The notes beneath the pieces were generated by a model, which saw only the letters and a list, made by a program, of their open reading frames with translations, had not been told where the DNA came from and made no database searches. Of a stretch of 64,000 nucleotides of DNA, positions 12,920-55,418 are shown piece by piece. A program made the position numbers and the translations under genes. Source of the DNA: a virus; the IMG/VR virus record IMGVR_UViG_3300025326_000025; one strand, given 5' to 3'. The first letter of the stretch is position 1. Every line of letters begins with the position of its first letter.

Positions 12920-13897
12920 TCACACCTCCACGAACGAGATCGTCGCGCGGACGCTCAGCGTGTCCGTAGGCTGGAGCGTCACGGGCGAGAACGTCGCGCG
13001 GTTCAGTCCTGGCTGTCCGGCGACGGAGGACCCTGCGATACCGAGAGCCATCTCGCTGACGGTCGCCGACAGGCCCGTGTGGCTCGAGGAGGCCACGTAC
13101 CGTCCTGGTGTCCCGGAAGGTTGGAAGGCGTTGGTGACGAAATGCTTCTCGAAGTAGCTCACGGTGACCCGTCCGGTCGTCACGGCGCCGTAGCCGTCCT
13201 CGTTGTTCCCCGAACTCGTGATTGCGACGGTCATCGACGCACGTAGGTCTGCGAGCTGACCGAAGTCAATGTTTCCCGTCAAGATTGCGAGGCTCGTGAT
13301 CTCGTAGGGCGTCGTATCGGAGACGCTGAACACATCGACCGTCTGCGGTCCCGTTGCCACACCGGGAATATAGAGACGGTGGCTCCACGACCCCGCGACG
13401 AACCCAACCCCGGAAACCTTCTGAGCGACGACATTGTAATTCGCGGAGACGGTCTTGAGGACATGGAACGTCGATCCGGGCGGATCGCTAGTGTGGTATA
13501 GGTCCGTCAGGACCTCCGCGGGCGGCTCGAACCCGGAGATGGTCGAGTAGAGATATGTCGCCGTGTTCGCGTCGTTCAGGCGGGCCGCGTGCGTCGCGCC
13601 GGACCCGGCCGTCCGCAGGTTCGCCTGGATGTCCGAGCTGAAGGTCAGCGTGGTGGTCTTGTTGACCACGATCGGGGACTTGACGCCCCCGTCTCCCGCG
13701 GCGGGCGCGGAACTGTCAGATCCCAGCCACGTGATGCCGAAGGGCAGTCCGCTCAGCGTGAGGACGCTCCGGAGCTTGTCGTTGATGATCTGCTTCCCGA
13801 CGGTCATCGCGAGGTTCCGGATGTCCCGGACCTCTTGCATGTGGCCGCTACCGTCGTAGCGTTCGATGTGGACATCTCCGCGCAGGGAAACTGGCAT
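12920..13897 (-). CDS. Tail-collar/fibre-base-like protein, paralog 2 (with ~180-aa insertion)
   Basis: Same N- and C-terminal motifs (RNLAMTVG..., SSSHTG..., FSPVTLQPTDTL) split by an insert. Confidence 0.6.
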   Translation of the reverse strand: MPVSLRGDVHIERYDGSGHMQEVRDIRNLAMTVGKQIINDKLRSVLTLSGLPFGITWLGSDSSAPAAGDGGVKSPIVVNKTTTLTFSSDIQANLRTAGSGATHAARLNDANTATYLYSTISGFEPPAEVLTDLYHTSDPPGSTFHVLKTVSANYNVVAQKVSGVGFVAGSWSHRLYIPGVATGPQTVDVFSVSDTTPYEITSLAILTGNIDFGQLADLRASMTVAITSSGNNEDGYGAVTTGRVTVSYFEKHFVTNAFQPSGTPGRYVASSSHTGLSATVSEMALGIAGSSVAGQPGLNRATFSPVTLQPTDTLSVRATISFVEV

Positions 13898-13911
13898 CTC
13901 CGCTCAACTCT

Positions 13912-13921
13912 TGGTTATTGG
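13912..13921 (-). promoter_or_regulatory. CCANNAACCA motif
   Basis: CCAATAACCA, 15 nt before ATG 13897. Confidence 0.65.
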
Positions 13922-13923
13922 CC

Positions 13924-15645
13924 TCATGGCGACCTCTCCGCGACGGTCATCCGGACGATGTAGACGCCCCTTCGGAGGCGCTCGATCGTGTACCCCTCCA
14001 TCCTCCCGACGAACCGCTCCTGGAGGTTGAAGTACAGGTAGAACAGGATCTCCAGGTCGCGATCGGCGACCGCAAAGGCCTCGAGGGCCGCGGCCATCGC
14101 ATCCCGATCCGACTCGTCGCCGAGGAGCAGACCCGCAACGTCCCACCGCTTCGCCTGGCTGCCGGACCCCTGGATGACGTCTTTGCCAGCCGGCACCCGG
14201 ACGACGTTCGATTTGGACGCCCGTCCGGGTGTCACCTTGCCGGCGTAGAGGAACACGGACTCGGAGCGTCCGTCGAGGTGCAGTTTCAGGATGCTCCCCG
14301 GCAAGACCGAGTTCTTGAGATACTGGACGATGAACACGTCCATGACCGGGATGTCGTCCGACAGTTCCCGGAACAGATTGCGGAACTGCTCGATGATGGC
14401 GCGTATGGAGACGGACTCGTCGGAGAGGCGCTCGTACTCGTTCGATAGATCCAGTTCGTCGATTGTCTCCACGGTCACGGGGACATCGACCTCGGCGACC
14501 ACCTGTCGGAAGAGGTCGTCCACCACGAGGATGTCGTCGGTCGGATACCGGGACGCCTCCATGATCGTAATGGGGTCCACGCCGATGACGAACGTCTCAT
14601 CCGCGAACCGTTCGGCCTTCGGCGCCCCGAACGCACGCGTGATGGGCAGGAGGAAGTGACGGAACGGGTACGCGGGCTTCGCCGCCATGCCGTTGAGGAA
14701 CGTGCGCTTCCAGATGACCGCCTGAGCGGACACCTCGATTGCAGCGCCCTCGATGAATGCGACCACTTGATCTGTGATCTGGATGTTCTTGAGGAAGTCC
14801 CTCTCGGGATTCCAGATGCGGACGAGTTGGTCCGTGACGGAGATCGAATCGGAGGGCCTCCGGTTCAGGCCCGTCTCGATGCGCACGAACGGCAGGACGA
14901 AGAAGCGCGTCGGATAGGCGGGCTTCGCGGCCAAGCCTCCGAAGAACGTCCGGCGCCAGACGATCGTGTTCGACAGGACGGAGACGGGCGGGGGAGGGGG
15001 TACATCCGAGAAGGCGGCCGTGACGCCGATCTCGAGCGTCGTGCGGAAGGAGCGGCGGAGGTTGTCCGTGACGGAGAGGTTCTGCGACAGGAAGCGGTTG
15101 AACGTGCTCCCGACGACCGAGAAGATGAGGTCGTCGTCCACGACGAAGGAGTCGGAGAATAGTCGAGAGTACGTCGTCCCGATGATTCGTGCGTCGACGG
15201 CGTCCGAAAAGGAGATGCCCACTTCCGGCAGGTCCTTCGATGCCGAGAAGATGCGACGTGGCGTGTCCGTGACCACGATCATCTGGGACAGGCGGACGGT
15301 GGTCGTACCGGCTTGGAGGGCCGCAGAGAGGGCATCCGACACATCGATGCTGTCGGATTTCCGGACAACGTATACGAATCGTACGGATCGCGTGACCGAG
15401 TCCGTCCATGACGGTCGGACGTTGATCCCCTTCGTCACGACGAATGTCCGGCGGATACCCGGGTCGTTGACGTCGATGACCTGAGACAGCCGACGGGTCA
15501 GACGTTTCGTCACCCGGACGGGAAAGTCTGAGACGTCGATCGTTTGGGACAGGAAGCGGTTCTTGATGGGCCCGGCGACGAAGGTGTGCCCCTCAATCGC
15601 GCGTATGCTGACCGTCTCGTTCGCAAAGCGCGTGAACAGGGCCAT
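13924..15645 (-). CDS. LSD-repeat protein with a C-terminal GpU/Dit-like domain (573 aa)
   Basis: About 15 LSD-type repeats, two W-R/K-RTF..G.AAKPAYP units; C-terminus similar to 15656-16078. Confidence 0.65.
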   Translation of the reverse strand: MALFTRFANETVSIRAIEGHTFVAGPIKNRFLSQTIDVSDFPVRVTKRLTRRLSQVIDVNDPGIRRTFVVTKGINVRPSWTDSVTRSVRFVYVVRKSDSIDVSDALSAALQAGTTTVRLSQMIVVTDTPRRIFSASKDLPEVGISFSDAVDARIIGTTYSRLFSDSFVVDDDLIFSVVGSTFNRFLSQNLSVTDNLRRSFRTTLEIGVTAAFSDVPPPPPVSVLSNTIVWRRTFFGGLAAKPAYPTRFFVLPFVRIETGLNRRPSDSISVTDQLVRIWNPERDFLKNIQITDQVVAFIEGAAIEVSAQAVIWKRTFLNGMAAKPAYPFRHFLLPITRAFGAPKAERFADETFVIGVDPITIMEASRYPTDDILVVDDLFRQVVAEVDVPVTVETIDELDLSNEYERLSDESVSIRAIIEQFRNLFRELSDDIPVMDVFIVQYLKNSVLPGSILKLHLDGRSESVFLYAGKVTPGRASKSNVVRVPAGKDVIQGSGSQAKRWDVAGLLLGDESDRDAMAAALEAFAVADRDLEILFYLYFNLQERFVGRMEGYTIERLRRGVYIVRMTVAERSP

Positions 15646-16085: not shown

Positions 16086-17438
16086 TCACCCTCTCAGGAT
16101 CCTCCCGCCTTTCTTTCCGGAATGCCCGTAGATGAAGCGCGTCGGACCCGAGGTGACGGACGCGACGACCGTGTCGGAAACGGAGATGGAGTCGGAGAGG
16201 CGTTGAAGTGTTGCACCGAGCGGTCCGACCGAGAAGTACCACGCGAACGACTGCGATGGATCGGCATCGTCCATGATGCACGTGAATCCGTCGGAATCGA
16301 GGGACTTGAGATCCATGAGGCCCTCGGTCGTGTCGCTCGTGGACATGTTCGCATAGACTTCATCGTGCTCAAGAATGGTTCCTACTACCGACGTGTCCGC
16401 GTTGTCGTCGTCGTGGCATCCCTGGGCGCCACGATCCGTTGTTCCAGCGAATGCGCCCACGCTCAACTCAAGCCCGGCCGAGACCGTGTCCTCGGTACTC
16501 GCCGCCCTGCAGGCCGACACGATAAGGCCCGCTTTGGGAGCGAACCCGAACCCCGTCTCAACGATGTCCGTCGTCGTGTCCGTCTGCGTCAGGAGGGAAT
16601 CCACCCGGAAGTTCACGCCCCGGAGAGCCAGGTAGAAAAGGGTGACCGTGCCAGCGATATTCTCCGTCCAGTTGAGTCGGAAACCATTCGTGAGCCACGC
16701 TGTCAGAGTGGCCCGCCGCGCGATCGGGTTCGGATCGCTCGGGTCCGTGTCCATCCGGACGAAGATTTCCCCGGAACGGCAGTAGGACGCTGAATCGGTC
16801 AACGCCTGACCGTTCTCCGAGGAACAGGCCCAAACGGCATTCGACGGCGTAGAACCCGCCGCAGCACCGAAACTCGCTCGCGCGTGGACCGTCACCGTCA
16901 GGTCTGCACTTGCGGAATCAAGGATGAGCAGCGCATCGGGCGTGAATCCGAGGCTGGTGAAATCCTCATCTCCCGTCGCTCCGATGGATGAAACAACGGA
17001 TCCCTGTTCTACCTGAAGGTCCGATCCTCCGAGGGCTAGATACGTGACGCGATAGGTATCCACGAACGCGTTATCCGGAACGACCGAGAAGCCGTCCGAG
17101 TTGAAGGAGACGAAATCCAGCAATCCATCGACGACCCCACTCACGTCGATGGCCGATAAGCAGGCGGTCGTGTCCCGATAGCGGTCCGTGTTCGATGTCC
17201 CGGCGCCATCGTCGAGCTGCAATGACCATGTGTACCTCGACGTGGACGACACCGCCCATCCGATCGCCGGCTTCGCGTCCGCACCGCCGACGGAGTCGGA
17301 CGTACCGGTGCGCCCGGTCATGAAGAAGATGACGACTTTGGGCTGGAAGGTGCCCGCGTCGGGGTCCGTCGTGACGACGTCGATCTGGGAAGTGATGGTC
17401 GTCGTGCTGAACGCTCCAACGGCGCGGAAGAACGTCAT
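16086..17438 (-). CDS. Adhesin-like protein: one GFQP three-repeat domain plus terminal LSD unit (450 aa)
   Basis: TFQPKVVIF / GFTPDALLI / GFAPKAGLI repeats; ends RLSDSISVSD...FIYGHSGKKGGRILRG. Confidence 0.7.
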   Translation of the reverse strand: MTFFRAVGAFSTTTITSQIDVVTTDPDAGTFQPKVVIFFMTGRTGTSDSVGGADAKPAIGWAVSSTSRYTWSLQLDDGAGTSNTDRYRDTTACLSAIDVSGVVDGLLDFVSFNSDGFSVVPDNAFVDTYRVTYLALGGSDLQVEQGSVVSSIGATGDEDFTSLGFTPDALLILDSASADLTVTVHARASFGAAAGSTPSNAVWACSSENGQALTDSASYCRSGEIFVRMDTDPSDPNPIARRATLTAWLTNGFRLNWTENIAGTVTLFYLALRGVNFRVDSLLTQTDTTTDIVETGFGFAPKAGLIVSACRAASTEDTVSAGLELSVGAFAGTTDRGAQGCHDDDNADTSVVGTILEHDEVYANMSTSDTTEGLMDLKSLDSDGFTCIMDDADPSQSFAWYFSVGPLGATLQRLSDSISVSDTVVASVTSGPTRFIYGHSGKKGGRILRG

Positions 17439-20125
17439 GCCGGTATCTCCCGAAGGACACGCCCACCGTCAAGGCCCGCCGAGATGTAGATGAACTCAGA
17501 CGGTTCCGTCTCGGAGACGACGTGTGCGGATGCGATTCCCTCCGAAATCGTAATTCCGTCGGACAGACCCCGTACGAACGCGCCGGTCCCAAAGGCGAGG
17601 TATGCGATGATGTCGGCGGTGGCGTCGTTCGTCGTCCACCTGACGGTGAAGCCGTCCGTATCGTAGGATTTCATGTCCCCCGCGGCGAGCACGGACGGGG
17701 TGGATCCGTGGACCGCTGTAATGACGGCCTTCGTCATCGTGTCGTATTGGTCGACCTGCGTCGGCAAGACGGCGTCTCCACCGACCCCGGCGGACGCTCC
17801 CTCTTGGCTCCCGTCCTTCGAGGACGCGGCCCCGATCGCGAAGTTCTCATGCGCCTGAATCGAGTTCGACGATGTCTGATGGGTGTTCGCGAACAGGACC
17901 GCGCTCGGACTGAACCCGATGCCCGTGAAGGCGTCGTCGAGAGGTGCGGCCTCCGTCGCTTTCGCTTGGGTTCCTGCTTTGTATCTCCCGCCCTTCAGCA
18001 GGAGCATGACCCCAATCGTGCTCGCCGTCGCAGGCGCGTCGTTGATGGTCAGCGTCAATCCGTCCGAATCGAAGGAGGCGAGGCTCCAGTTCGCATCTTG
18101 CGCGCCGCCCGTCGTGAACGAGTACATACAGGCGTCCGTACGGAGGATCTTGTTCCAATCCATCGCTCCCGTCGTGGTGACGGCATCGTCGGCGCAGACG
18201 GCCACGCACCATTGGCTCGAGGCAGACGAGGCAGCTCCGAACGACATCGTCATGTGGTCGTTCTGGCCGCTTGCGACATGTGCCGTGTTGGCGTAGAGAA
18301 ACAGCGCGCAATCCGGTCGGAAGCCAGCGCCCGTGATGATCTGATCTGTGCCCGACGTGTTCATCGTCGGAAGGAGGACGATTGCGTCCTCCGCATCGGT
18401 CCCTCCGATGGCGAGCCAGAACAAACGTTCCGTCGCCAGCGCGACGTTGTAGGAGAGGGTGAACCCGTCCGCGTCCATGCTGTCCAGTTGAACGTTATTC
18501 GTGCCGTTCCACCATACCGATTCGTTGCGCGTCGAGTGCATCGTGTTCGTAGTCGACACGTTATCGTCGTTGCGCCACGCAATGCACCCCTGCTGGACGC
18601 TGGCCCCGCGTTTCGTCGCGAACCCGATGGATTCCCGCGTGCTCGCGACCCAGACGTTCCCGTTCGCCAGACCGCGGGATCTCCAGAATATGACCGCCTT
18701 CGGCTGGAAGTCCAGACCCGTGATGTCGTGGAAACCGATGTTGTTGTACTGGTTATCCCGCAGCACGACGGAGCCGTGCTTGACGCGGAGGCTCGGAGGC
18801 GCCGCCTGCCCGCCGTCCCCGATTGCGACATAGGTGACGTACCGCTGGGCGGTGCCGGGTGGGACGAACGGCCCATTCGGACTCGGGACAATCTGCTCCA
18901 CCGTGAATCCGTCGTCGTTCGTAGACGTCCACACGACTTCCTCCTCGATTCCGCCGGCCGTTGGTGGACCTCCCGGAGGCCATTCGGGGTCGATGGAGGC
19001 CCAGCAGCTCGTCGTCTTCGTCGTCGTGGCCGCCGCCATCGGGACCGTGCCGCCATCCGTCTCGTAGTCGAGATTTGCGATCCCCTGGGTGCCGTCCTCA
19101 TCGAAACCTCCGAGGTTAATCCCATAATCGTAGTCCGCGGGTTCCTCGTCGAGTTCGCCAAGGGACGAGTTCGTCGAGAGGAAGGCGACACCGCGCGGCC
19201 TGAAGCCCATGGAGACCGACAGGAGGCTCGGACTGTCCGTCTCGGATGCGACCCCGGGAAGATTGAGTGACCCCACGCGGCCCGAGAACGTGCCCCCGAG
19301 GATTAGCCCCAGGAAGCGCACGGAGGAGGTCGTGACCTTCGTGTGGTTGAGCGTGAACCCATCCGAGTCCCATGATATGAAGTCGGCCTTGTTGTCGCTG
19401 ATGAGATCGGCCTGCGCGCTCCCGTGCTTCGCCGACAGTAGGCATGACGATAGGGTGCTGAAATTCGCGCGGAGCTGCTGGACGTTCGTATTGTCGTTCG
19501 CGCAACAGGCCCACGCCCAGCGTCTCGATGTCGACTCGGCGGACCCCATTCCGAACGACGCGCCCGTCGCGGATCCCGTAGCGGTTTGATTCGTGTTCAG
19601 GAAAATGCCAATCTTCCCTTGGAAGCCCACTCCCGTGTAGGAACGGTTCCCCGTCGCGGTAGGACCGGTGAATCCACCGACGAACGCACCCGATACATCG
19701 CTCCCGCCGATGAAGGTGTAGTGGATGATGATGGCACTCGCCCCGCCGGGATTCTCCGTCCAGTTGACCGTGAACTTGCCGGCGTTACCTCCCGTCCCGA
19801 AGGAATCGAAGTCCGCAACGCTCTCCTGTGTAGGCGTGGAGTCTGAGAACACCTCGATGACGCGATCCGTGAAGTATCCCTTCCCGACGTTCGCCGGATC
19901 GACGCCGTTCTGGACGACATTCGAGATGCAGCCGCGCTGCGAGGGCGACGCCGCGACGCCAACTCCGAGGACCTTGTGGCCGCTCGACTCATCGAATCCG
20001 GACGTTGTCTGATTCGTCCAGAACAGGATGACGGCCTTACCGACGACTCCGCTGCCCGTGTCGATGGTCTGCGTTCCTGTGCCGGCGGGTCGCGTAAAGG
20101 TTCCCTTGACCCACGTCACAGCCAT
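17435..20125 (-). CDS. Adhesin-like protein: two GFQP three-repeat domains plus terminal LSD unit (896 aa)
   Basis: Six repeats; ends RGLSDGITISE...FIYISAGLDGGRVLR. Confidence 0.7.
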   Translation of the reverse strand: MAVTWVKGTFTRPAGTGTQTIDTGSGVVGKAVILFWTNQTTSGFDESSGHKVLGVGVAASPSQRGCISNVVQNGVDPANVGKGYFTDRVIEVFSDSTPTQESVADFDSFGTGGNAGKFTVNWTENPGGASAIIIHYTFIGGSDVSGAFVGGFTGPTATGNRSYTGVGFQGKIGIFLNTNQTATGSATGASFGMGSAESTSRRWAWACCANDNTNVQQLRANFSTLSSCLLSAKHGSAQADLISDNKADFISWDSDGFTLNHTKVTTSSVRFLGLILGGTFSGRVGSLNLPGVASETDSPSLLSVSMGFRPRGVAFLSTNSSLGELDEEPADYDYGINLGGFDEDGTQGIANLDYETDGGTVPMAAATTTKTTSCWASIDPEWPPGGPPTAGGIEEEVVWTSTNDDGFTVEQIVPSPNGPFVPPGTAQRYVTYVAIGDGGQAAPPSLRVKHGSVVLRDNQYNNIGFHDITGLDFQPKAVIFWRSRGLANGNVWVASTRESIGFATKRGASVQQGCIAWRNDDNVSTTNTMHSTRNESVWWNGTNNVQLDSMDADGFTLSYNVALATERLFWLAIGGTDAEDAIVLLPTMNTSGTDQIITGAGFRPDCALFLYANTAHVASGQNDHMTMSFGAASSASSQWCVAVCADDAVTTTGAMDWNKILRTDACMYSFTTGGAQDANWSLASFDSDGLTLTINDAPATASTIGVMLLLKGGRYKAGTQAKATEAAPLDDAFTGIGFSPSAVLFANTHQTSSNSIQAHENFAIGAASSKDGSQEGASAGVGGDAVLPTQVDQYDTMTKAVITAVHGSTPSVLAAGDMKSYDTDGFTVRWTTNDATADIIAYLAFGTGAFVRGLSDGITISEGIASAHVVSETEPSEFIYISAGLDGGRVLREIPA

Positions 20126-20149
20126 CTACGGCATCTCCGCTCGAAGAGA

Positions 20150-20159
20150 TGGTTGATGG
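20150..20159 (-). promoter_or_regulatory. CCANNAACCA motif
   Basis: CCATCAACCA, 25 nt before ATG 20125. Confidence 0.65.
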
Positions 20160-20160
20160 C

Positions 20161-20274
20161 CTAGCGCGCGTGCTTTTCCTTCCGGTGACGGACCCAATCG
20201 CGCCACGGCACCTCGTCGCCGCAGCCGCAGAGGATCGTCCCCGGTTGGACGTTTCCCTTCTTGCTCTTTGTCAT
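20161..20274 (-). CDS. 37-aa C2H2-like microprotein (not in the ORF track)
   Basis: MTKSKKGNVQPGTILCGCGDEVPWRDWVRHRKEKHAR; flanked by two CCATCAACCA motifs. Confidence 0.55.
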   Translation of the reverse strand: MTKSKKGNVQPGTILCGCGDEVPWRDWVRHRKEKHAR

Positions 20275-20306
20275 CTAGTTCGTAGCATGGAGGGATCTCC
20301 GGACGA

Positions 20307-20316
20307 TGGTTGATGG
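20307..20316 (-). promoter_or_regulatory. CCANNAACCA motif sharing its CCA with tRNA-Asn
   Basis: CCATCAACCA, 33 nt before ATG 20274. Confidence 0.6.
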
Positions 20317-20388
20317 CGCAGCCGCGCGGAATCGAACCGCGACCTTCGGCTTAACAGGCCGATGCACGCACCCTCGTGCTACGGCTGC
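20314..20388 (-). tRNA. tRNA-Asn(GUU)
   Basis: GCAGCCG/CGGCTGC acceptor, TCGGC-CTGTTAA-GCCGA anticodon arm, GGTTCGATTCC T-arm; CCA encoded. Confidence 0.92.
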
Positions 20389-20391
20389 GTG

Positions 20392-20464
20392 TGGGACGGG
20401 CCCGGTTCGAACGGGCATCTTCGGTTCTGGAGACCGACCGGCTACCGATTGCCGACACCGTCCC
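20392..20464 (-). tRNA. tRNA-Trp(CCA), intronless
   Basis: GGGACGG/CCGTCCC acceptor, TCGGT-CTCCAGA-ACCGA, TTCGAAC T-loop. Confidence 0.88.
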
Positions 20465-20465
20465 A

Positions 20466-20536
20466 GGCCACAGGCGCGAGTCGAACGCGCGTCTCGGGGA
20501 CCACAACCCCGCGTCCTTCCGTTAGACGACCGTGGC
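20466..20536 (-). tRNA. tRNA-His(GUG), no encoded G-1
   Basis: GCCACGG/CTGTGGC acceptor, C73, CGGGG-TTGTGGT-CCCCG; base -1 is T. Confidence 0.9.
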
Positions 20537-20537
20537 A

Positions 20538-20608
20538 TAGTGCCGCCCTGAATCGAACAAGGATTTCCGGGTCCAGGGCCCGGCGTCTTTCCGTTAGACG
20601 ACGGCACT
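20538..20608 (-). tRNA. tRNA-Gln(CUG), atypical C33
   Basis: A1-U72 (archaeal Gln hallmark), CCGGG-CCCTGGA-CCCGG. Confidence 0.85.
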
Positions 20609-20609
20609 A

Positions 20610-20680
20610 TGGGCCATGACGGAGTCGAACCGCCTCGTCCGAGTTCCAGGCTCGGGATGCTGCCGTTACATCAAAGGCCC
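20610..20680 (-). tRNA. tRNA-Pro(UGG)-like, atypical C33 and A37
   Basis: GGGCCTT/ATGGCCC (U6.U67 mismatch), CCGAG-CCTGGAA-CTCGG, GGTTCGACTCC. Confidence 0.75.
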
Positions 20681-20688
20681 CTTCGCGA

Positions 20689-20762
20689 AGCCACCGGAGG
20701 GAATCGAACCCCCGTCCTCCCGCTTACAGGGCGGGTACTCGGCCAACGTGAGCTTCGGTGGC
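20689..20762 (-). tRNA. tRNA-Thr(UGU), atypical C33 and A8
   Basis: GCCACCG/CGGTGGC with U73, CCCGC-CCTGTAA-GCGGG, GGTTCGATTCC. Confidence 0.83.
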
Positions 20763-20765
20763 ATG

Positions 20766-20838
20766 TGGAGACGCCCGGAATCGGACCGGGATCATCGGAT
20801 CTTCAGTCCGGCGCTCTACCAGATTGAGCTACGTCTCC
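20766..20838 (-). tRNA. tRNA-Phe(GAA), T-loop TCCGATT
   Basis: GGAGACG/CGTCTCC, TAGCTCAATCTGGTAGAGC D-arm, loop CTGAAGA; C55 and C27.A43 deviations. Confidence 0.85.
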
Positions 20839-20843
20839 GCGGA

Positions 20844-20915
20844 TGGAGCCGGAGGGAGTCGAACCCTCACCACCTACTTGCAAGGCAGGTATGCTTCCGT
20901 TAGCACCACGGTCCC
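20844..20915 (-). tRNA. tRNA-Ala(UGC)
   Basis: G3.U70 identity pair, loop CTTGCAA, GGTTCGACTCC; A4.C69 mismatch. Confidence 0.88.
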
Positions 20916-20924
20916 ACGGCGGCC

Positions 20925-21161
20925 CTACAGGCCGCAGCGCGCGCGTACGCCGTACGCCTTGGCTTGGTCCGGGAGATCCGGGCAGGCGGCGTGGGCCCAC
21001 CCTGGCGGCGTTGCAGGAGGGGTTGGCGGGGGCGTCGTGGGCGGGGGCACGATTGGCGGTGCGGGCGCCTGGGACGTGAGCAGGACATACGCTACGTAGG
21101 CGATCAGGGCGGCGATTGCCACGGCGGCAACGACGAGCACGATGCGTTCGCGTCGGTACAT
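20925..21161 (-). CDS. Membrane-anchored Pro-rich small protein (78 aa)
   Basis: MYRRER, then a TM helix, then a PPPTTPPP linker and two Cys; start reassigned to ATG 21161. Confidence 0.65.
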   Translation of the reverse strand: MYRRERIVLVVAAVAIAALIAYVAYVLLTSQAPAPPIVPPPTTPPPTPPATPPGWAHAACPDLPDQAKAYGVRARCGL

Positions 21162-21184
21162 GGAACACCCCGAGGTTCGAGGAA

Positions 21185-22015
21185 CTATTTGAAGTTCATG
21201 TCGTGGTTCGTGGCTGCGCGCTGTTTCGCATACAGGACGAACGGGTCCGGATCGCGGATCATTCGGTAGCCGAGATTGGCGGCCGCGCTGTTCACGCGGG
21301 CGTCGCGTTCCGCCTGCGCCGTCCGCCACGGGCCGTGACCCCCCGCGCCATCCAGCTCGAGGATGACCGCGAGATCGCGGACGGTCCCGTCACGCACACC
21401 GGGAACGCCTTCAACGACCTGCTGGAACCGGAAGCCGAGGCGCGTCGCCGGGTCCGAGATGACATGGGCGAGCCATACCCTCTCGTTGGACGTCGGGCGG
21501 CGGGCGAGCGAGGCTGCGAGCTTGCGATGGAACGCGGGGTCTTTGTGCCGTTCCTTCATCGAACGGCTCACGCCGTCGTGGCGGGACCGGATAAAGACGG
21601 GATTGGCGTTGTGGACCTTCATCCGGTCGCTGGCGGCCTTGTCCCACGATGGGTCAAATCGGAGCCGCGTCATCGTTCTGCGTGATCTTTGTTTGGCTGC
21701 CGCCGCGAACGCAGGGTTCTTGTGTAATCGTTTCATTCGACGACTCGATGCCTCGCGTCTTTTCTTCACGAAGTCGGGATCCGCGTTCAGTCTGTTTATC
21801 GTTCGCCGGGCCGATTCGGACTGTATCATGCGTCTTCGCGGATCTTCGCTCCAAGCCTCCGACATGGATCGACCGATTCCCGCCTTCTTGACCCATTTGT
21901 ACACGGCGCTCAATGACACGCCGACGGAATCGGACACCGATTCTAGACTCTTTCCGGACGCGTAGAGTTCGAGCGCTCTGTTTCTTATTCCGTCTGAGTA
22001 GGCACGGCGTGTCAT
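21185..22015 (-). CDS. Free-standing homing-endonuclease-like protein (HTH + basic NUMOD-like repeats + DUF559/Vsr-like nuclease)
   Basis: N-terminal HTH (ALELYASG.SLESVS..VGVS..AVYKWV); repeated S..MK..H.DP.F units; C-terminal PTSNE...FRFQ...D.AVILELDG..H...RD. Confidence 0.7.
   Translation of the reverse strand: MTRRAYSDGIRNRALELYASGKSLESVSDSVGVSLSAVYKWVKKAGIGRSMSEAWSEDPRRRMIQSESARRTINRLNADPDFVKKRREASSRRMKRLHKNPAFAAAAKQRSRRTMTRLRFDPSWDKAASDRMKVHNANPVFIRSRHDGVSRSMKERHKDPAFHRKLAASLARRPTSNERVWLAHVISDPATRLGFRFQQVVEGVPGVRDGTVRDLAVILELDGAGGHGPWRTAQAERDARVNSAAANLGYRMIRDPDPFVLYAKQRAATNHDMNFK
21204..21213 (-). promoter_or_regulatory. CCANNAACCA motif
   Basis: CCACGAACCA upstream of 21161 and the tRNA array. 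Confidence 0.6.
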
Positions 22016-22039
22016 CGTCCCCGCAATGGCGACGAAGGT

Positions 22040-22048
22040 ATGTAAAAC
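22040..22048 (-). promoter_or_regulatory. TATA-like box of the endonuclease gene
   Basis: TTTTACATA ending about 25 nt upstream of ATG 22015. Confidence 0.45.
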
Positions 22049-22054
22049 TATCCG

Positions 22055-22540
22055 TCACGTAAAGGAGACAGTATATACAATATTCAAAGTGTCCGCCGTG
22101 CTCAGGACGATCTGCGAGAACGTCCCGGCGCACAGGAACAGGTCCGACACCGTGTTGTAGAGCCACGCGCTCGAGATGGACGCGGCGATCCCCGTGTGCG
22201 AGGACGAGGCCTGGTACACGCCCGTCGAATTGAAGGCGAACGTGTTCGACTGCGTGTGCTTCGGTCCGACCGGTCCGCCTTCCGGCGTCGCGGAGTCCGA
22301 CGCGATCACCGTCCAGGCGAATCCTTCGCGGCCCGTGAGACCCGTCTTCCCGGACAGGGTCGTGAGCTGGTTCTTGCCCTCGTTCTGCACCGCGTTCCGG
22401 ACGTCACGGATTTCCACGACGCCCGCGCGAGCGATCCCACCGTGGAGCGGACACGCGGCCCCCGGGCATACGACCTCGGCGTGAATGTCGCCGCGGAAGC
22501 GGATGACGTTGTCCAACGAGGGACTGAATGCACTCGACAT
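22055..22540 (-). CDS. Tail-collar/fibre-base-like protein, paralog 3
   Basis: RNAVQNEG...SSSHTG...FSQIVLSTADTLNIVYTVSF. Confidence 0.6.
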   Translation of the reverse strand: MSSAFSPSLDNVIRFRGDIHAEVVCPGAACPLHGGIARAGVVEIRDVRNAVQNEGKNQLTTLSGKTGLTGREGFAWTVIASDSATPEGGPVGPKHTQSNTFAFNSTGVYQASSSHTGIAASISSAWLYNTVSDLFLCAGTFSQIVLSTADTLNIVYTVSFT

Positions 22541-22561
22541 GGCGTTCCCTACCTCACCCTT

Positions 22562-22571
22562 TGGTTCATGG
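22562..22571 (-). promoter_or_regulatory. CCANNAACCA motif
   Basis: CCATGAACCA, 22 nt before ATG 22540. Confidence 0.65.
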
Positions 22572-22576
22572 TGGCC

Positions 22577-24763
22577 TCACAGGCCGAACCGCGCCAGTTC
22601 CTTGCTGATGTCGTCCCTCGAGGCGTCGTAGAAGTTGAAGTTCAATGTACCGCCGTGCATCCCGCCGGAGATTGTCGTCCCGGCGGCAACGGCTCCGGCG
22701 CCCCCCATCCCCAAGCGGAACCCGAGGATCCCACGGTTCTCCTCGGCCGTGAGGACGCGTTCGCCGCGATGGAGCATGAACGCCCCCGTCTCGGTCACGA
22801 AATCCGTGCCCATCTGCAACGACCGATTCTCGCTCGATGTGAGCAAAGCGCGGAAAGCATCCGGGAAGGCCGACAAATTATGCAAACCCGATAGAAGTGC
22901 ATCGAAGCTCCTTCTCGAGTCTAGGTTGGCGAGGACATCCATGAGTTCACGGTTCTCCTCGGCCGTGAGGACGCGTTCGCCGAGGTGCAGGCGATACATC
23001 CCGGTCTCCTCGACGAAGGGCGTGCCCTCTTGGAAGCTCTTTCCGGCGGTGGCAGCGATGTATGTCCCGACACCAGCGAGAGCGGCAGCCATGATGGCGA
23101 TGGCTGGGATTGTGCCCACGAATAGGGTCCGGCCCGATATCTCCGCGAGGGCCACGGCGAATTGCGCGGCTGCGAGGCCCCACGCGGCCGCTGTCAGGAC
23201 CGAATAGAGGGCCGCCTGTTCCTTGCTCGTCGCGCTCATCGCGGCCATCATCAAGGCTACGCCGCTGACGGCCGCGCCGACGCCGACCATCGCGGCACGC
23301 ATGGCGACCGCGCGCCGGTTCAGGGTGTTGAACCAGTTGTCGACGTCGCCCATCGTAGGTACGAGCTGCGTCGCCATCATCAGTCGGAGTTTTCCGAACG
23401 CCGCGACCATATCCAGGATCGTCTTAATCGGCAGGATCCTGTTGAACAGGGCGAACAGGATGATCATGTTCTGGACCGGCTGTGGGAGAGAGAGGAACGC
23501 CTTCACGAGTCCGAGGAATACCTGCGAAAAGGCGTTCCACACGGGGAGCATGTTCACGACGATGCGCAGGAGACCTTGGAGGAGTTCCAAGAGTTGCGGG
23601 AGGTTCGCCGCGAAGTCCCGGATGACGGTCACGAGGATCTCCCGGAACACCGGCGCCGACGCCGTGATGATGTCCTTGAGTTCCGTGAGTACATCCGAAA
23701 GGGCCTCAACGACTTCCGGTGTTCGGATGCCCCCCACGAAGGTCTGAACGACCTGCTGCCATTGCGACTGTAGCGTGTCCGCCGTCTCTCCCGCAACCTC
23801 CGCGAGTGCTCCCTGAGAGTTCGTGATTGCGTCGATGGACCCGGGTAGGCGGTCGGCGTTGAGGAGAAGGAACGCGAGGGCACGTGCGCCCCTACGCTCC
23901 ATGAAGCCGAAGAACTCCGCGAGCTGATCGACGTCGATCGAGACATCAAGACGGTCAAACGCCTCTACGAGCGCCAACAGGTTCAGGCGTCCGTCCTCGA
24001 TGATGTTCACGCCGAGGCCGAGGGAGTCGGCCCATGCCTGTGCCTGGTCCGCGTTCTGGATGAGGCTCACGATCATCTGGTCGATGCCACGCGCCGAGAT
24101 CCCGGCCTGCTGCCCGGCGTTCACGAGCTGCACCATGAGGGCCAAGAACTCCTCCATGGTTCCGCCCGCGAGCTGAATCGTCCCCGCGGCGAATCCGAAG
24201 GCCCGGCCGAAGTCCTCGACGTCCAAGAGCGAGATGTTCGCCGCCACCTGGAGCTTGTCGAACACCTCGACGGCCGTGAGACCCTGTGCGGCGAACGCGG
24301 TCGTCGCGACGACGTATGCCCGGGCGGCCGTCTCCCACGAGATCCCGTTCGCCAGGACAGCTTGCGTGGCGACGTCGATGATGTCGATGATCTCGCGGCC
24401 TGTGAGGCCGGCCTTGGCGAGGATGAGTGCACCCTGCGCAATCTCGTCTCCGGCGACGCCCCACGACGCAGCCGCGACGTTGATGGCGTCGTTCAGCTCC
24501 CACATCTGAGTTTCCGTCAAGCCCCCGATGACGGCCGTCTGGCGCAGGGCGAACTCGTAGTTGCGGAGGGCCCCGATGGCGATTCCGACGACGGCCGCCT
24601 GCCCGGCGAAGGCGATGCCCCCCGCGATCGCGACCCGCCGGGCGGTGTCTCCGATGCCTCCGGTGATCGTCGCCATGGACGCACGCCATTGGGCCTGGAA
24701 CCGCGCGAGTTCGGCCTCCGCTTGGGAAGCGTCCGCCGTGATGAAGATATCCGCCTCGGCCAT
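22577..24763 (-). CDS. Tape measure protein (TP901-type core, 728 aa)
   Basis: A-S-W-G-V..E.A.G...LAKAG, LQVAAN.S..D...G, AGQQAG...RG motifs; Ala-rich helical; TM-like central part. Confidence 0.9.
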   Translation of the reverse strand: MAEADIFITADASQAEAELARFQAQWRASMATITGGIGDTARRVAIAGGIAFAGQAAVVGIAIGALRNYEFALRQTAVIGGLTETQMWELNDAINVAAASWGVAGDEIAQGALILAKAGLTGREIIDIIDVATQAVLANGISWETAARAYVVATTAFAAQGLTAVEVFDKLQVAANISLLDVEDFGRAFGFAAGTIQLAGGTMEEFLALMVQLVNAGQQAGISARGIDQMIVSLIQNADQAQAWADSLGLGVNIIEDGRLNLLALVEAFDRLDVSIDVDQLAEFFGFMERRGARALAFLLLNADRLPGSIDAITNSQGALAEVAGETADTLQSQWQQVVQTFVGGIRTPEVVEALSDVLTELKDIITASAPVFREILVTVIRDFAANLPQLLELLQGLLRIVVNMLPVWNAFSQVFLGLVKAFLSLPQPVQNMIILFALFNRILPIKTILDMVAAFGKLRLMMATQLVPTMGDVDNWFNTLNRRAVAMRAAMVGVGAAVSGVALMMAAMSATSKEQAALYSVLTAAAWGLAAAQFAVALAEISGRTLFVGTIPAIAIMAAALAGVGTYIAATAGKSFQEGTPFVEETGMYRLHLGERVLTAEENRELMDVLANLDSRRSFDALLSGLHNLSAFPDAFRALLTSSENRSLQMGTDFVTETGAFMLHRGERVLTAEENRGILGFRLGMGGAGAVAAGTTISGGMHGGTLNFNFYDASRDDISKELARFGL
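22732..22982. repeat. 35-bp exact direct repeat inside the tape measure C-terminus
   Basis: CACGGTTCTCCTCGGCCGTGAGGACGCGTTCGCCG at 22732-22766 and 22948-22982 (encodes GERVLTAEENR twice). Confidence 0.9.
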
Positions 24764-33197: not shown

Positions 33198-33418
33198 TCC
33201 GCGTCGAACTCGGGACTGTCGGCGGAGATGGACGCGGTCTTCGGGTCGTACCCGTACTTCTTCGCGAGAACATCCATGTACTGCCGAACCTGTCCCCATG
33301 CGTCCCGAGCCGTGTTCTGCCACGATGGTCCATAGACGAGTACGGGCGTCGTCTGAGCATCGCGATAGAGGCCGATGAGTTTCGCATGTTCTTCTTCGGT
33401 GAGGCGGACGTGCTTCAT
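33182..33418 (-). CDS. Hypothetical protein (78 aa), translationally coupled to Ro60
   Basis: ATGA overlap with the TROVE stop; MKHVRLTEEEHAKL... Confidence 0.65.
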   Translation of the reverse strand: MKHVRLTEEEHAKLIGLYRDAQTTPVLVYGPSWQNTARDAWGQVRQYMDVLAKKYGYDPKTASISADSPEFDADATVK

Positions 33419-34995
33419 TCCGTCTCCGTCCCGGCGTCCTTCTTGTAGCTGCGTTCGCCCGCCTTCCGGATTGCCTCGAATACGACGCCCGGATCCTTCG
33501 TCTTCTCGTACGCGTCGAAGAAGCCCAAGACGCGGTCGGACCATCCAGCGAGCATGCACACGCCTCCCTCGGGGAACTGCGCCGTCCCGTACCCAGCGAG
33601 GTCGATCGAGTACAGGTAGGGCGTCTTGCCGATCTTCGAGACGTAGCGGTGGTACGACTCCGCAAGACTGTTCCCACGTGCCCCTACGCTCGAGTACATG
33701 GACGCGAACCTCGAGGTGACCTCGCTGTCGTAGCATTGCATGTCGCTGAAGATGACAATCCGGTCCACCGAGATGCCGTTCTCCGTGAGGTAGTCGATCG
33801 CCAGGAAGGCGTTCGTCGCCATCCCCACGTCCGTCGCACGGTATCTCTCGACGGCTTGCAGCAGGGATCCCGATTTCATCGTCGGGACCACCGCGAAATC
33901 CTCGGCGAACACGGACGTGATCGCCTTGTCGCAGATGTGCGTCGAGAGAGCCTGGAGGACGTTCGCCACGTCCTTCATCGACACGGAGGACTTGGCGCTG
34001 ACGTTCGCGTCCATGGAGTGACTGTTGTCCGAGGACAGGAAGGTCGTTCCGGCGAGGCGCGGGACGTTCACCACGCTGAGCCGCATCGCCGTCTCGAGGG
34101 CGTCCAACACCTCCGCAGACTGCGTGACGCTCTGGATCTCCCGGTAGGCCGAGAAGAACCGGAACGGGAACTGCTTCGACTTCCGGACGGCCTCCGGGTC
34201 CGTGAGGACCTTGAGGACCGGCGTGAGGTCGACGCCCTTCTGGATGAAGTTCCGGAGATTCCGCAGGAGTGCCATGTAACCCATGTTCGGGATGGCGGCC
34301 TCCCAGTTCTCCTTCGTGCTTCCTTTCGTGGAGATCGTGACCTCCCACGTGTACGGAGGCGTCAGGGTGCGTTCGAGGACCTGCTTGTAGAGGGCCGCGC
34401 GTTCCGGCATCTTCGGCTTCGGGTGCGTGATGCGCAGGACATCCCGGAGCTTGACTTCCCCGTCCCGGTCGTACTTCGCGAAGCCGTACGCGCCGAAGTT
34501 GTCGAAGGCGTCCGCGAGGCCGCGCTTGAGGGCGTTGCTCATCATGCCGGCCTTCGCGTGGTTCCCGATGTCCCCGAAGGCCTTCTTCCAAGTCGCCACG
34601 AGTTCCGTGAGCTGATCCGCGCGCGTGACGACCTTGGGTACGGTCGAGCGAACGAACGTTCGCGTCTCGGGATACCGGCACGCCTCAACGAGGAGGACGA
34701 GTGGGATGGTGCGAAGGTAGAGTTCCCGGCGCGCGTACACGGCGAGATCCAGGACGAACTGAGGATCCTCCTTCGCGACGACGCCGATGAGCCGCCGGAT
34801 CTCGTCATCACCCTGCGCCGTGGCGTCGTAGAACTTCGGCTCCCCGACGAGGGCCGTCGCGACGCGCGTGTAGAGTTCCATCTTCGGCTGCATCGCGAAG
34901 GCGAGTCCGCCCTCCTCATTCACCGTCGCGTCCGGTCTGTCCTGCACACTACGACGTGCCGTCGCCTTGGGGTTCTGTCGTGCCATGCTCATCAC
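33415..34995 (-). CDS. rsr: Ro60/TROVE domain ribonucleoprotein (Rsr ortholog)
   Basis: NEEGG.AF, LYLRTIP..LL, AKYDR...V.LRDVLRI.HPKP, TWEV.IS..G, YMALLRNLRN, SKQFPFRF..AY; vWA part D.S.SM...IFSDMQ; start between 34986 and 34995. Confidence 0.95.
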   Translation of the reverse strand: MMSMARQNPKATARRSVQDRPDATVNEEGGLAFAMQPKMELYTRVATALVGEPKFYDATAQGDDEIRRLIGVVAKEDPQFVLDLAVYARRELYLRTIPLVLLVEACRYPETRTFVRSTVPKVVTRADQLTELVATWKKAFGDIGNHAKAGMMSNALKRGLADAFDNFGAYGFAKYDRDGEVKLRDVLRITHPKPKMPERAALYKQVLERTLTPPYTWEVTISTKGSTKENWEAAIPNMGYMALLRNLRNFIQKGVDLTPVLKVLTDPEAVRKSKQFPFRFFSAYREIQSVTQSAEVLDALETAMRLSVVNVPRLAGTTFLSSDNSHSMDANVSAKSSVSMKDVANVLQALSTHICDKAITSVFAEDFAVVPTMKSGSLLQAVERYRATDVGMATNAFLAIDYLTENGISVDRIVIFSDMQCYDSEVTSRFASMYSSVGARGNSLAESYHRYVSKIGKTPYLYSIDLAGYGTAQFPEGGVCMLAGWSDRVLGFFDAYEKTKDPGVVFEAIRKAGERSYKKDAGTETE

Positions 34996-53790: not shown

Positions 53791-54522
53791 CTACCCCTCG
53801 TTCTCGATCCTCGGAGCTAGGATGTACGTCCCGGAGATGGCTTGCGCGCCTTCCCCGAACGAGAAGTCCGCGTACACGGGGTAGTCCTGACCAACGCGAA
53901 TTGTGAGGCGCGTCCCGTCGGGGAGAGCGTTCGCGAAGGCCGATACGTAGTCGATGGGAAGAAGGGTGCGGACGGCGGTCTTCGTCTCGACGCCGTAGAC
54001 GTGATGCTCCACGGTGTCCGCGTCGCCCTCCGCCTCGAACACGACATCCGGCGGATTCGTCCGGATGGCGATGCAATCCGACACGAGACTGGACGCCTTG
54101 ATGGCGATCCGTATCTCGTCCGGGCTCACCTGGAACGTCTCGGGGAGCTTCACGTTCGGGACCTTCGGATCGGGGAAGGCCTTGTTGTCGATGACGCCCA
54201 TCTTCCGACGCGTGTTCCCCACCTTGGCTTGTATGCGCCCGTCCACGATTTCGGCCTCGAAGGAACCGTCCCCCTGCAATGACAGGACCTCGGACATCTT
54301 GTCGAGGTCCAAGCCAATCTCCTCCTTGTCAAGGGCCGAATACGTGTCGAAGGAGGCCCGCGGGATCGCCATGTCGATGAGACACACATGCGCCGGGTCC
54401 ACGACACGGATGCGCGCGCCGTCTGGGTCGAACGTGAACTTCGCCTCGTCGACCGCGCACGAGAGTATCTTCACGACGGACGCGAGGCGTTTCCGGTCAA
54501 TCTTGAACTTCATATCGATCAC
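53791..54522 (-). CDS. pcn: PCNA sliding clamp
   Basis: VDEAKF....G.....VDP.HV.LI, EIG.DL..., G..YP, YILAPRIE C-terminus. Confidence 0.96.
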   Translation of the reverse strand: MIDMKFKIDRKRLASVVKILSCAVDEAKFTFDPDGARIRVVDPAHVCLIDMAIPRASFDTYSALDKEEIGLDLDKMSEVLSLQGDGSFEAEIVDGRIQAKVGNTRRKMGVIDNKAFPDPKVPNVKLPETFQVSPDEIRIAIKASSLVSDCIAIRTNPPDVVFEAEGDADTVEHHVYGVETKTAVRTLLPIDYVSAFANALPDGTRLTIRVGQDYPVYADFSFGEGAQAISGTYILAPRIENEG

Positions 54523-54741: not shown

Positions 54742-54755
54742 GGCAACTATTTAGA
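54742..54755 (-). promoter_or_regulatory. TATA-GTTGCC promoter
   Basis: TCTAAATAGTTGCC. Confidence 0.72.
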
Positions 54756-55418
54756 CGTATCGGGCTCGTCCCAGTCCACCCAGTCCATCTCCCGGACGGA
54801 AAGGAGCCAATCCTCTAGAAGATGCGGCTCTGGGGGGTCGTCCGGAAGACGCGACAGTTCGTGGGCGATCTTCATCTTCAAGATGAGCACGGATACCTCC
54901 TCCGGCGTCGTAACGGACGTCGCTTTGAACTCGATCCGTCCCTCCATCAAGAGCGTGATGCCCATCTGGACGGTTCGCGCGATGATGTTCAGGCGCTTGA
55001 CCGATGTGTCCTTACCGGTCGCGATGTACTTCTCGACGTTCTTCCGCGCGAGTCCTTGCAGACTTCCGTAGCACCGCTTCGAGAAGTTTCGTTCGGAGAT
55101 GCGGCGCAAGCTCGCGAGGAGATCGCGGCTGTCGTTGTCCGTCGTCAGGACGATTGGTGAGAACACGCCCCATAGATGATTCACGTTCCCGTCGAGGACC
55201 TGCTCGACGACGCGCCCAATCTCGTGCGTCTGGATGTCGTACTTCATCGTGTCGGACGAATCGACACGGTTCGCGAACCTCGGAATACCTCGCCCGAGAA
55301 GGAGGTGGCGTGTCGGAACTTGAACGGCCTCGTACACGTCGATGTCCGATCCCTCGTGATTCATCCCCCAAAGATGGGATCCAACCGATGTCTTCCACAG
55401 AACTTTCACGGCCATCAT
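54747..55418 (-). CDS. Pol-beta superfamily nucleotidyltransferase (RlaP/YcgL-like)
   Basis: VGSHLWG....GSDIDV (GS-x10-DxD), HE.G......L.GN.N....VFSP. Confidence 0.85.
   Translation of the reverse strand: MMAVKVLWKTSVGSHLWGMNHEGSDIDVYEAVQVPTRHLLLGRGIPRFANRVDSSDTMKYDIQTHEIGRVVEQVLDGNVNHLWGVFSPIVLTTDNDSRDLLASLRRISERNFSKRCYGSLQGLARKNVEKYIATGKDTSVKRLNIIARTVQMGITLLMEGRIEFKATSVTTPEEVSVLILKMKIAHELSRLPDDPPEPHLLEDWLLSVREMDWVDWDEPDTSK

Follow-up and report, generated by a model that had tools for sequence, protein, structure and literature searches.

Eight tightly packed tRNA genes in the tail module of an uncultured tailed virus with a probable archaeal host

Why would a tailed virus keep eight tRNA genes, some of them a single nucleotide apart, in the middle of its tail genes, and how could so dense a block be expressed and matured? 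The question arises from 64,000 nucleotides of the IMG/VR virus record IMGVR_UViG_3300025326_000025 (hereafter the window, meaning the whole stretch analyzed). There, eight tRNA genes lie within positions 20314-20916 of the minus strand, between the tape-measure gene and the large distal tail open reading frames (ORFs), which lie on the same strand. A first-pass annotation had described them as an intron-less array embedded in the tail operon in an archaeal setting, co-transcribed with late genes and excised by RNase Z and RNase P. We confirm that the array is a genuine set of eight tRNA genes. The best explanation, which we consider probable, is that it forms a functional polycistronic tRNA array of an uncultured tailed archaeal virus, processed by host enzymes.

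The eight genes are the full yield of ARAGORN for the 64 kb window, and the Rfam model RF00005 recovers the same eight with scores of 37.5-67.3 bits (E 1.8e-12 to 2.7e-4), its gathering score being 29 bits; no RNA family other than RF00005 was found by the Rfam scan of the window. Both finders accept every unit and none is rejected, with the anticodons given in the first-pass annotation. In coding-strand order the genes are as follows:

20844-20915, minus strand: tRNA-Ala(UGC), first gene of the array, 53.3 bits; G3:U70, A73, A4.C69 mismatch
20766-20838, minus strand: tRNA-Phe(GAA), 67.3 bits; G37, unusual C55 in the T-loop
20689-20762, minus strand: tRNA-Thr(UGU), 50.4 bits; C32-C33 in the anticodon loop, A8
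20610-20680, minus strand: tRNA-Pro(UGG), 45.8 bits; G1-C72, G2-C71, G3-C70, A73; C33, A37
20538-20608, minus strand: tRNA-Gln(CUG), 53.1 bits; A1-U72, A73; C33
20466-20536, minus strand: tRNA-His(GUG), 52.8 bits; C73, G29-C41, C50-G64; U at -1
20392-20464, minus strand: tRNA-Trp(CCA), 37.5 bits; G1-C72, G2-C71, A73, G37
20317-20388 (20314-20388 with CCA), minus strand: tRNA-Asn(GUU), 62.8 bits; G73

ARAGORN folds these genes into cloverleafs with a 7-bp acceptor stem, a 7-nt anticodon loop and a T-arm, and G18G19 is kept in all eight. With canonical ends that include the discriminator, the intergenic spacers along the array measure 5, 3, 8, 1, 1, 1 and 3 nt, exactly as first described, and the density is 13.3 tRNA genes per kb (8 genes in 602 bp). 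The claim that introns are lacking also holds, since genes of 71-74 nt with full-length model matches (positions 1-71 for seven tRNAs, 3-68 for Trp) have no space for them. Folded as one 626-nt precursor, the array gave z = 0.17, a statistic that is uninformative for GC-rich RNA.

Evidence that these genes are maintained as tRNAs comes from a related virus of ~95 kb with the same gene order, L009, which was found by a tape-measure search (66% identity). At the same site it carries ten tRNA genes in 754 bp with spacers of 2-10 nt, in the order Ala, Gly, Asn, Thr, Pro, Gln, Cys, Tyr, His, Trp, and a backbone Ala...Thr-Pro-Gln...His-Trp is common to both arrays. The seven shared tRNAs are 70-95% identical and their anticodon loops are the same in 7 out of 7. 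Identity reaches 70/74 positions for tRNA-Thr, 65/71 for tRNA-Pro, with two compensatory pairs, and 62/71 for tRNA-Gln; tRNA-Ala differs from its ortholog by five compensatory pairs. Altogether the seven ortholog pairs align 147 stem pairs, among which 117 are unchanged and 15 have changed on both sides with pairing kept, while the rest comprise nine one-sided changes that keep pairing, four pairs broken in one virus and two unpaired in both. Compensatory stem changes together with identical anticodon loops are what purifying selection on functional tRNAs leaves behind, and the shared tRNAs bear its signature. Strain copies of the window virus from six assemblies are ~99.98% identical, with zero differences within the array, and hence carry no covariation information.

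Which host would these tRNAs serve? The carrier is an uncultured, integrase-carrying tailed virus of ~92 kb and 62% G+C, and the same sequence is present on contigs of up to 92.6 kb from many soil, sediment and groundwater metagenomes. The window encodes structural and packaging proteins (terminase, major head protein, tape-measure protein, neck protein) and, further, an integrase, RusA, a DNA methyltransferase, three GT4 glycosyltransferases, a radical SAM enzyme, a Ro60/TROVE protein (33415-34995), an RlaP nucleotidyltransferase (54747-55418) and PCNA (53791-54522). DUF5131 adjoins RlaP in the gene calls, and the presence of Ro60, an RlaP-family RNA 3'-end nucleotidyltransferase and a tRNA array in one virus suggests a theme of RNA maintenance or repair.

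Database relatives are scarce. Neither a megablast of positions 19000-23000 nor a tblastn of the terminase against 50,697 phage records gave a match; IMG/VR scans with the capsid protein, an 896-aa distal tail candidate and an alignment of the microprotein ORF36 (both genes are described below) found no relatives, and a GTDB scan with the tape-measure alignment found nothing. Searching IMG/VR for the Gln/His D-arm returned one unrelated tRNA-rich contig. In GTDB genomes the same D-arm gave seven hits, all in tRNAs of other isotypes, from unrelated bacteria and one small archaeal metagenome-assembled genome (MAG), to which the array showed only weak BLAST matches that are uninformative on the host. 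A tRNA fragment near the integrase, as a possible attP, was searched for and none was found.

Three independent lines nevertheless point to an archaeal host, as the first-pass annotation had supposed. The first is the sliding clamp, which matches PF00705 with 30.6 bits (cut-off 20.3) and whose Atlas model reaches a template-modelling score (TM) of 0.94 to archaeal PCNA clusters. The second is the tRNAs themselves. Phe and Trp have G37, which is the archaeal and eukaryal state. Trp (A73, G1-C72, G2-C71), Pro (A73, G1-C72, G2-C71, G3-C70) and His (C73, G29-C41, C50-G64) present the archaeal identity sets tabulated by Giegé and Eriani (PMC9976931) and by Mukai et al. (PMC5370408), Gln has A1-U72 and A73, unlike the bacterial U1-A72 and G73, and in L009 a Tyr with C1-G72 and no variable arm and a Gly with A73 belong to archaeal sets too. 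The third line is promoter geometry: TATA-like boxes sit 21-25 nt before start codons, as does a TATA box that drives a leaderless mRNA, and a search of the window for sigma-70-like promoters and intrinsic terminators gave no signal above chance. That the carrier is instead a bacteriophage, with tRNAs serving a bacterial host, would agree with the hits of its tape measure, terminase, RusA and integrase in phage-dominated PHROG and Pfam families, with GAGG-type Shine-Dalgarno sequences on its late genes and with the use of archaeal-type Tyr and Trp identity by some bacteria of the Candidate Phyla Radiation (PMC5370408). Such a phage would, however, have to possess PCNA and not a beta clamp, archaeal identity in Trp, Pro, His and Gln as well as in the Tyr and Gly of L009, G37 in both Phe and Trp, and TATA-box geometry with leaderless spacing in a window without above-chance sigma-70 or terminator signal, a combination that makes us regard it as extremely improbable.

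How an archaeal virus would transcribe the array depends on its neighbors. The features that flank it are:

22577-24763, minus strand: tape-measure protein, assigned by PF10145 (59.8 bits) and by tape-measure families of PHROG; identity with its L009 homolog 66%
22055-22540, minus strand: ORF161, conserved tail-module protein, 62.5% identical to ORF158 of L009; a CCANNAACCA leader precedes the gene
21185-22015, minus strand: 276-aa ORF, transposase-type helix-turn-helix (HTH) N-terminus, sub-threshold DUF559 match; not in L009
21183-21194, minus strand: TATA-like box CTTCAAATAGTT, overlaps the stop codon of the preceding ORF; distance to the ORF78 ATG 21 nt
20925-21161, minus strand: ORF78, small protein with one transmembrane segment and a Pro-rich tail, called as a 78-aa gene in independent assemblies
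20164-20274, minus strand: ORF36, microprotein (MTKSKKGNVQPGTILCGCGDEVPWRDW...) just 3' of the array; 84% identical in L009
20148-20159, minus strand: second copy of the leader motif, CCATCAACCATC, ahead of the 896-aa distal tail gene
17435-20125, minus strand: 896-aa distal tail or host-recognition candidate, first large gene past the array

Spacers of 1-8 nt leave no space for individual archaeal promoters, which lie upstream of their genes, so that by this reasoning the eight genes must be one transcription unit and yield one precursor. We propose two sources for the precursor, acting singly or together: late transcription that starts upstream and reads through, and the TATA-like box before ORF78. 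Co-transcription with late genes, as proposed at first, is favored by the short spacers, by the position on the coding strand of the tail module, by the absence of a terminator-like signal and by L009, whose array stands directly behind late ORFs with no TATA-like box. On the coding strand from 26.9 kb to 11 kb we found no T5 run, and terminator-like hits were at chance level. With no terminator-like signal past tRNA-Asn, transcription would continue into ORF36 and the distal tail genes.

The claim that the array has no dedicated TATA box is true of the sequence directly upstream: the ORF78 stop (TAG, 20927-20925) lies 9 nt before tRNA-Ala, and those 9 nt hold no such box. It does not extend to the box 21 nt before ORF78, 268 nt upstream of tRNA-Ala, which is a candidate internal promoter for ORF78 and the array and through which the array may have a promoter of its own here, besides late read-through. 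This box belongs with a TATA-like family of consensus TTCTAAATAGTTGCC, an AT-rich box found on the coding strand only; WWATAGTT occurs seven times, always on the coding strand, and in six of the seven a start codon follows 21-25 nt downstream. The main promoter family shows an inverted repeat GCAAC...GTTGC around the TATA-like box (61833-61812, 48336-48315 and others), and some of its sites score on both strands, which suggests an operator for a dimeric regulator.

A stronger version of the promoter hypothesis is that ORF78 and the tRNAs form a separate early or constitutive unit, a leaderless transcript driven by this box, and that the location in the tail operon is merely positional. The core AAATAGTT and the 21-nt spacing match a promoter family that otherwise precedes non-structural genes, and by our own estimate, which starts from the ~0.7 copies per strand that base composition alone would produce, an 8-mer would fall by chance at the right spacing from one of ~60 gene starts about 0.003 times per window. 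Yet the ORF78 site has no GTTGCC extension of the main promoter family and stays outside the top position weight matrix scores, it lies at the 3' end of the 276-aa insertion specific to the window virus, no such box precedes the L009 array, so that the arrangement is not ancestral, and nothing would block read-through by upstream late transcripts. We hold a separate unit to be rather unlikely.

A single precursor with spacers this short raises the matter of its maturation, for which both arrays offer hints. Pooling their 18 tRNAs, the nucleotide at +74 is a pyrimidine in every case (U in 12 of 18) and that at -1 in 17. U at -1 is favored by bacterial RNase P, and U just past the discriminator stimulates the RNase Z of Bacillus subtilis. 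The bias is consistent with cleavage by RNase P and then tRNase Z, although two homologous arrays are non-independent samples, a point that counts against our reading. In Archaea, RNase Z acts on a substrate whose 5' end is already mature and cleaves it 3' of the discriminator, or of CCA where this is encoded, whatever the length of the trailer (PMC7479834), so that 1-nt spacers would be workable if RNase P acts first. In the scheme that we propose from archaeal enzymology, host RNase P would cut each 5' end first, tRNase Z would then trim the 1-8 nt trailers after the discriminator, after which seven of the tRNAs would still need a CCA-adding enzyme for their completion. These cuts would also leave the upstream mRNA with a 3' end 9 nt past ORF78 and the downstream tail mRNA with a 5' end at or beside the CCAUCAACCA leader. 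Single-nucleotide leaders had been envisaged for this process; the 1-nt spacers do exist, but each such nucleotide would be either a leader or a trailer, according to the order of cleavage.

The one encoded CCA deserves a separate explanation. It is true that CCA follows Asn only (20316-20314), as the first-pass annotation had remarked, but these are the first three bases of a recurrent motif, CCANNAACCA. The motif has 14 copies, all on the coding strand and none on the other, at sites that include 20316-20307, 20159-20150, 21213-21204 and 22571-22562, and it is usually followed ~6 nt on by a Shine-Dalgarno sequence of GAGG/GGAG type and then by a late-gene start. At the end of the array the copy CCATCAACCA begins with CCA and abuts G73 of tRNA-Asn. 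Motif positions are kept in L009 before ORF158, ORF37 and the distal tail gene, with a one-mismatch copy 5 nt before tRNA-Ala. The CCA pattern is not conserved there: UCC stands behind Asn, CCG behind Trp, which is the last tRNA, and CCA behind His. The best explanation for the CCA behind Asn in the window is therefore a late-leader motif whose start abuts G73. The L009 His gene with its CCA shows a 3-nt difference from that of the window. As to what the motif does, a leader, a processing site and a late promoter element are all candidates.

Is the array, then, a fixed part of this tail module? Downstream of it, the 896-aa protein (17435-20125) has no detectable similarity to the 827-aa protein of L009 (14642-17125), in what looks like a swap of the host-recognition module exactly at the array. 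With conserved tail genes upstream and unrelated distal proteins, the array stands where the conserved part of the tail module gives way to the swappable one. Among distant relatives of ORF161 and the 896-aa protein, equivalent junctions measure 10-40 nt and one has 322 nt; absence of an array in P0005, P0031, P0033, P0034, P0036 and P0037 is judged from gene spacing alone. The array would thus be a lineage-specific acquisition and not a fixed part of the tail design.

One of these relatives may help to place the host. The P0031 contig (GCA_036706575.1, 95 kb) has a 53%-identical tape-measure gene beside an integrase and a D5-type primase, together with Arf/Ras-family small GTPase genes and ribosomal L3-L4-L23-L2 genes. 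A related provirus within a host chromosome is the probable reading, and through it the host lineage could be named.

Specific to the window virus with respect to L009 are the 276-aa ORF and possibly ORF78. ORF78 is not conserved, an unrelated 89-aa transmembrane ORF standing in its place in L009. The 276-aa ORF is an insertion beside the array in the window virus only, judging by its absence from L009. It has an HTH of IS3/IS630 type, a lower G+C content at third codon positions (0.74) and an AT-rich stretch upstream (22039-22088), as expected for a mobile gene. Its match to DUF559, a Vsr-like nuclease family, scores 17.7 bits, below the cut-off of 20.6; in a single-sequence AlphaFold2 model the C-terminal half has a predicted local distance difference test (pLDDT) score below 50, too poor for a fold search, and a sequence search of the PDB returned weak HTH hits only. 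We also considered that the whole block from ORF161 to ORF36 had arrived as one recent insertion; this is ruled out by L009, in which ORF161 and ORF36 are conserved as well as the array.

A site so variable could harbor selfish or decaying cargo, an array moved by the HTH/nuclease-like gene or by recombination at module boundaries, with little or no translational function. Several features suit this idea: the site is a hotspot where the two viruses differ in which tRNAs they carry and in what order, the small ORFs and distal tail genes that flank the arrays bear no relation from one virus to the other, only the window virus has an inserted HTH gene resembling those of mobile elements, distant kin have no array, and in T4 the homing endonuclease SegB can drive the inheritance of a tRNA cluster (PMC2330249). 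What decides against it is the state of the tRNAs, with 15 compensatory changes, intact identity elements and identical anticodon loops across ~34% divergence at the protein level; moreover, a nuclease domain is not established in the 276-aa ORF, and L009 retains its array without that ORF. We consider cargo of this kind highly unlikely.

Two further observations concern the surroundings of the arrays. ORF36 represents a family of 36-37 aa, basic proteins with a CGCGDEVPW core, and no other protein near the array is as well conserved (84% identity, vs 62-66% for its neighbors). Copies are found in the window (20164-20274), in L009 (ORF37, 14458-14571) and on a metagenome contig, L016 (697-801), where the protein is 74% identical and is encoded behind two membrane-protein genes, with no tRNAs upstream. 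This tRNA-free copy weakens the candidate functional tie between ORF36 and tRNA arrays. In L009, a tRNA-Phe(GAA)-like gene (2067-2137, Rfam 55.2 bits) lies outside the array, ~95 nt past Ro60; it has an odd T-loop, UUGGACU, and could be a relocated ordinary tRNA or the tRNA-like part of a Y-type RNA. An extra 215 nt past the L009 array showed no significant structure (z = 1.0) and no Rfam match.

If the tRNAs are functional, what are they for? The first-pass annotation had called for a comparison of the anticodon set with viral and host codon usage, and for the viral side the set covers 14.3% of codons by Watson-Crick pairing and 27.7% with standard wobble. The G34 and C34 tRNAs match dominant viral codons (UUC 93%, AAC 80%, CAG 77%, CAC 70%), UGG for Trp also being among the dominant codons read, and the U34 tRNAs for Ala, Thr and Pro match rare NNA codons (10-12%), with wobble to the dominant NNG possible. 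The role of the array is most likely to boost or secure the tRNA supply during production of virion proteins.

Several observations weigh against a functional array with this role. The virus prefers typical high-GC codons that a GC-rich host should already serve, and simple codon compensation is a less convincing role for that reason. Given the TATA-like box before ORF78, the array need not be expressed with late timing, and the lack of an array at the equivalent site in distant relatives makes it dispensable for this tail module. The tRNAs also depart from near-universal features: C takes the place of U33 in Thr, Pro and Gln, A that of U8 in Thr and C that of U55 in Phe, Pro has A37 instead of the usual G37, and the acceptor stems of Ala and Pro contain mismatches. 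Finally, tRNA-His has no encoded G-1, having U-1 opposite C73 in both viruses (window 20466-20537; L009 14093-14168). G-1 is gene-encoded in most Bacteria and Archaea (PMC9976931), so this tRNA would need templated G-1 addition or a tolerant histidyl-tRNA synthetase. C33 is present in three of the eight window tRNAs and in five of the ten of L009 (Gly, Thr, Pro, Gln and Tyr; 13563-14088), the A37 of tRNA-Pro and the A8 of tRNA-Thr occur in both viruses, and the control, an unrelated viral contig (L008), has U33 in all of its 12 tRNAs. Because they are conserved in L009, the C33 and A8 departures are not random decay.

This pattern is central to another view of the purpose, which leaves anatomy and processing the same: the tRNAs would replace host tRNAs depleted by anticodon nucleases or other tRNA-targeting defenses, with C33 (in Thr, Pro and Gln here, and in Gly and Tyr of L009) and the A37 of Pro making them poor nuclease substrates. 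C33 has been kept while stems diverged. Every tRNA for a four-codon box has U34, and each of the others is the single isoacceptor for its amino acid (His, Asn, Phe and Trp, with Tyr and Cys in L009), which resembles a minimal self-sufficient set and not a rare-codon patch. The virus also carries Ro60/TROVE and an RlaP nucleotidyltransferase, an enzyme type that extends damaged RNA 3' ends by 1-2 nt and makes repaired tRNAs functional again (PMC12776372). Altered anticodon loops have been proposed to let phage tRNAs escape host tRNases (PMC10264068), and two other studies report phage tRNAs overcoming retron and Septu defenses (PMC11555353, PMC13096335). On the other hand, a U33C change left cleavage by the Kluyveromyces lactis gamma-toxin unaffected (PMC2275089), the support is circumstantial throughout, and no archaeal tRNA-targeting antiviral defense is tied to the host. 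We judge a counter-defense purpose unlikely, yet a serious rival. Its fullest form seems to us more improbable still: a module of minimal self-sufficient tRNAs with protective C33 and A37, acting alongside Ro60 with Y-like RNAs and RlaP repair, in which excision of the array would make the 5' end of the distal-tail mRNA at CCAUCAACCA and so couple tRNA release to tail-fiber expression. If true, it would be the first tRNA-based anti-defense system described for archaeal viruses.

Returning to a host-processed array that supplies tRNAs, its interest is manifold. Viral tRNA clusters are well known in phages, and descriptions from archaeal viruses mostly concern haloarchaeal isolates; the present case adds a maximally packed array, maintained by selection, in an uncultured lineage of soil and sediment archaeal viruses, at the border of the conserved and variable parts of the tail module. 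It offers a natural substrate of ~600 nt with 1-nt spacers on which to study the cleavage of directly adjoining tRNAs by archaeal RNase P and tRNase Z. The conserved C33, the A37 of Pro and a His without encoded G-1 are relevant to how anticodon loops work, to the addition of G-1 and, possibly, to conflicts between virus and host over tRNAs. Lastly, tRNA identity elements double as a host-domain marker for a virus with almost no database relatives.

Among known systems, phage T4 is the obvious reference, its eight tRNAs being transcribed together with species I/II RNAs and segB in one primary transcript of ~1.75 kb (PMC2330249). The two share eight tightly packed viral tRNA genes near protein-coding sequence, with co-transcription and release deduced here from the genes, a tRNA content that varies among related viruses, and a mobile-element-like gene in or beside the cluster. 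They differ in that host, identity sets and promoters are archaeal here; that the array lies in a tail structural module, whereas the T4 cluster occupies a non-essential middle-gene region; that it is about twice as dense (602 bp, vs two sub-clusters within ~1.75 kb); and that its neighbor is an HTH protein with an unproven nuclease domain, outside the array, in place of a GIY-YIG endonuclease.

Closer in host are haloarchaeal tailed viruses such as HGTV-1, with 34-36 tRNA genes (PMC13532342; PMC6409571). These too are archaeal Caudoviricetes with several tRNA genes, usually discussed as a codon supply, and tRNAs for A-ending Ala and Pro codons are found in both. The window virus, in contrast, comes from non-hypersaline soil, sediment and groundwater and has no sequence relative that could be detected in deposited records of phages and archaeal viruses, and its set is small, intron-less, located in the tail module and equipped with C33 in three tRNAs. 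By the definition of Morgado and Vicente (2019), a viral tRNA cluster has at least 2 tRNA genes per kb, and their survey counted clusters of at least 15 genes; with 13.3 per kb the array exceeds this density, and also the ~2-10 per kb of large viral clusters (PMC6409571), but it has only eight genes. Unrelated to the window virus, 24 tRNA genes stand together within 3.4 kb of chromosomal sequence in the MAG of a planctomycete, Phycisphaerales (L020, 626-4065).

The arrays of mycobacteriophage cluster C1 and of T5-like phages, for which a role against tRNA-targeting host defenses has been proposed or shown, likewise combine anticodon-loop departures with RNA-repair functions in the same genomes (PMC10264068, PMC11555353). 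Their hosts are bacteria with known tRNases, and position 33, where the departure lies here, is not discussed in those studies. A last parallel is the tRNA punctuation of mitochondrial transcripts, where tRNAs also stand next to coding sequence, with from none to a few nucleotides in between, RNase Z (ELAC2) cuts once RNase P has acted and excision defines mRNA ends, as it would here. There, single tRNAs stand between most genes, whereas the virus has one block of eight between two gene groups. In its anatomy and probable processing, the array is like the known viral tRNA clusters.

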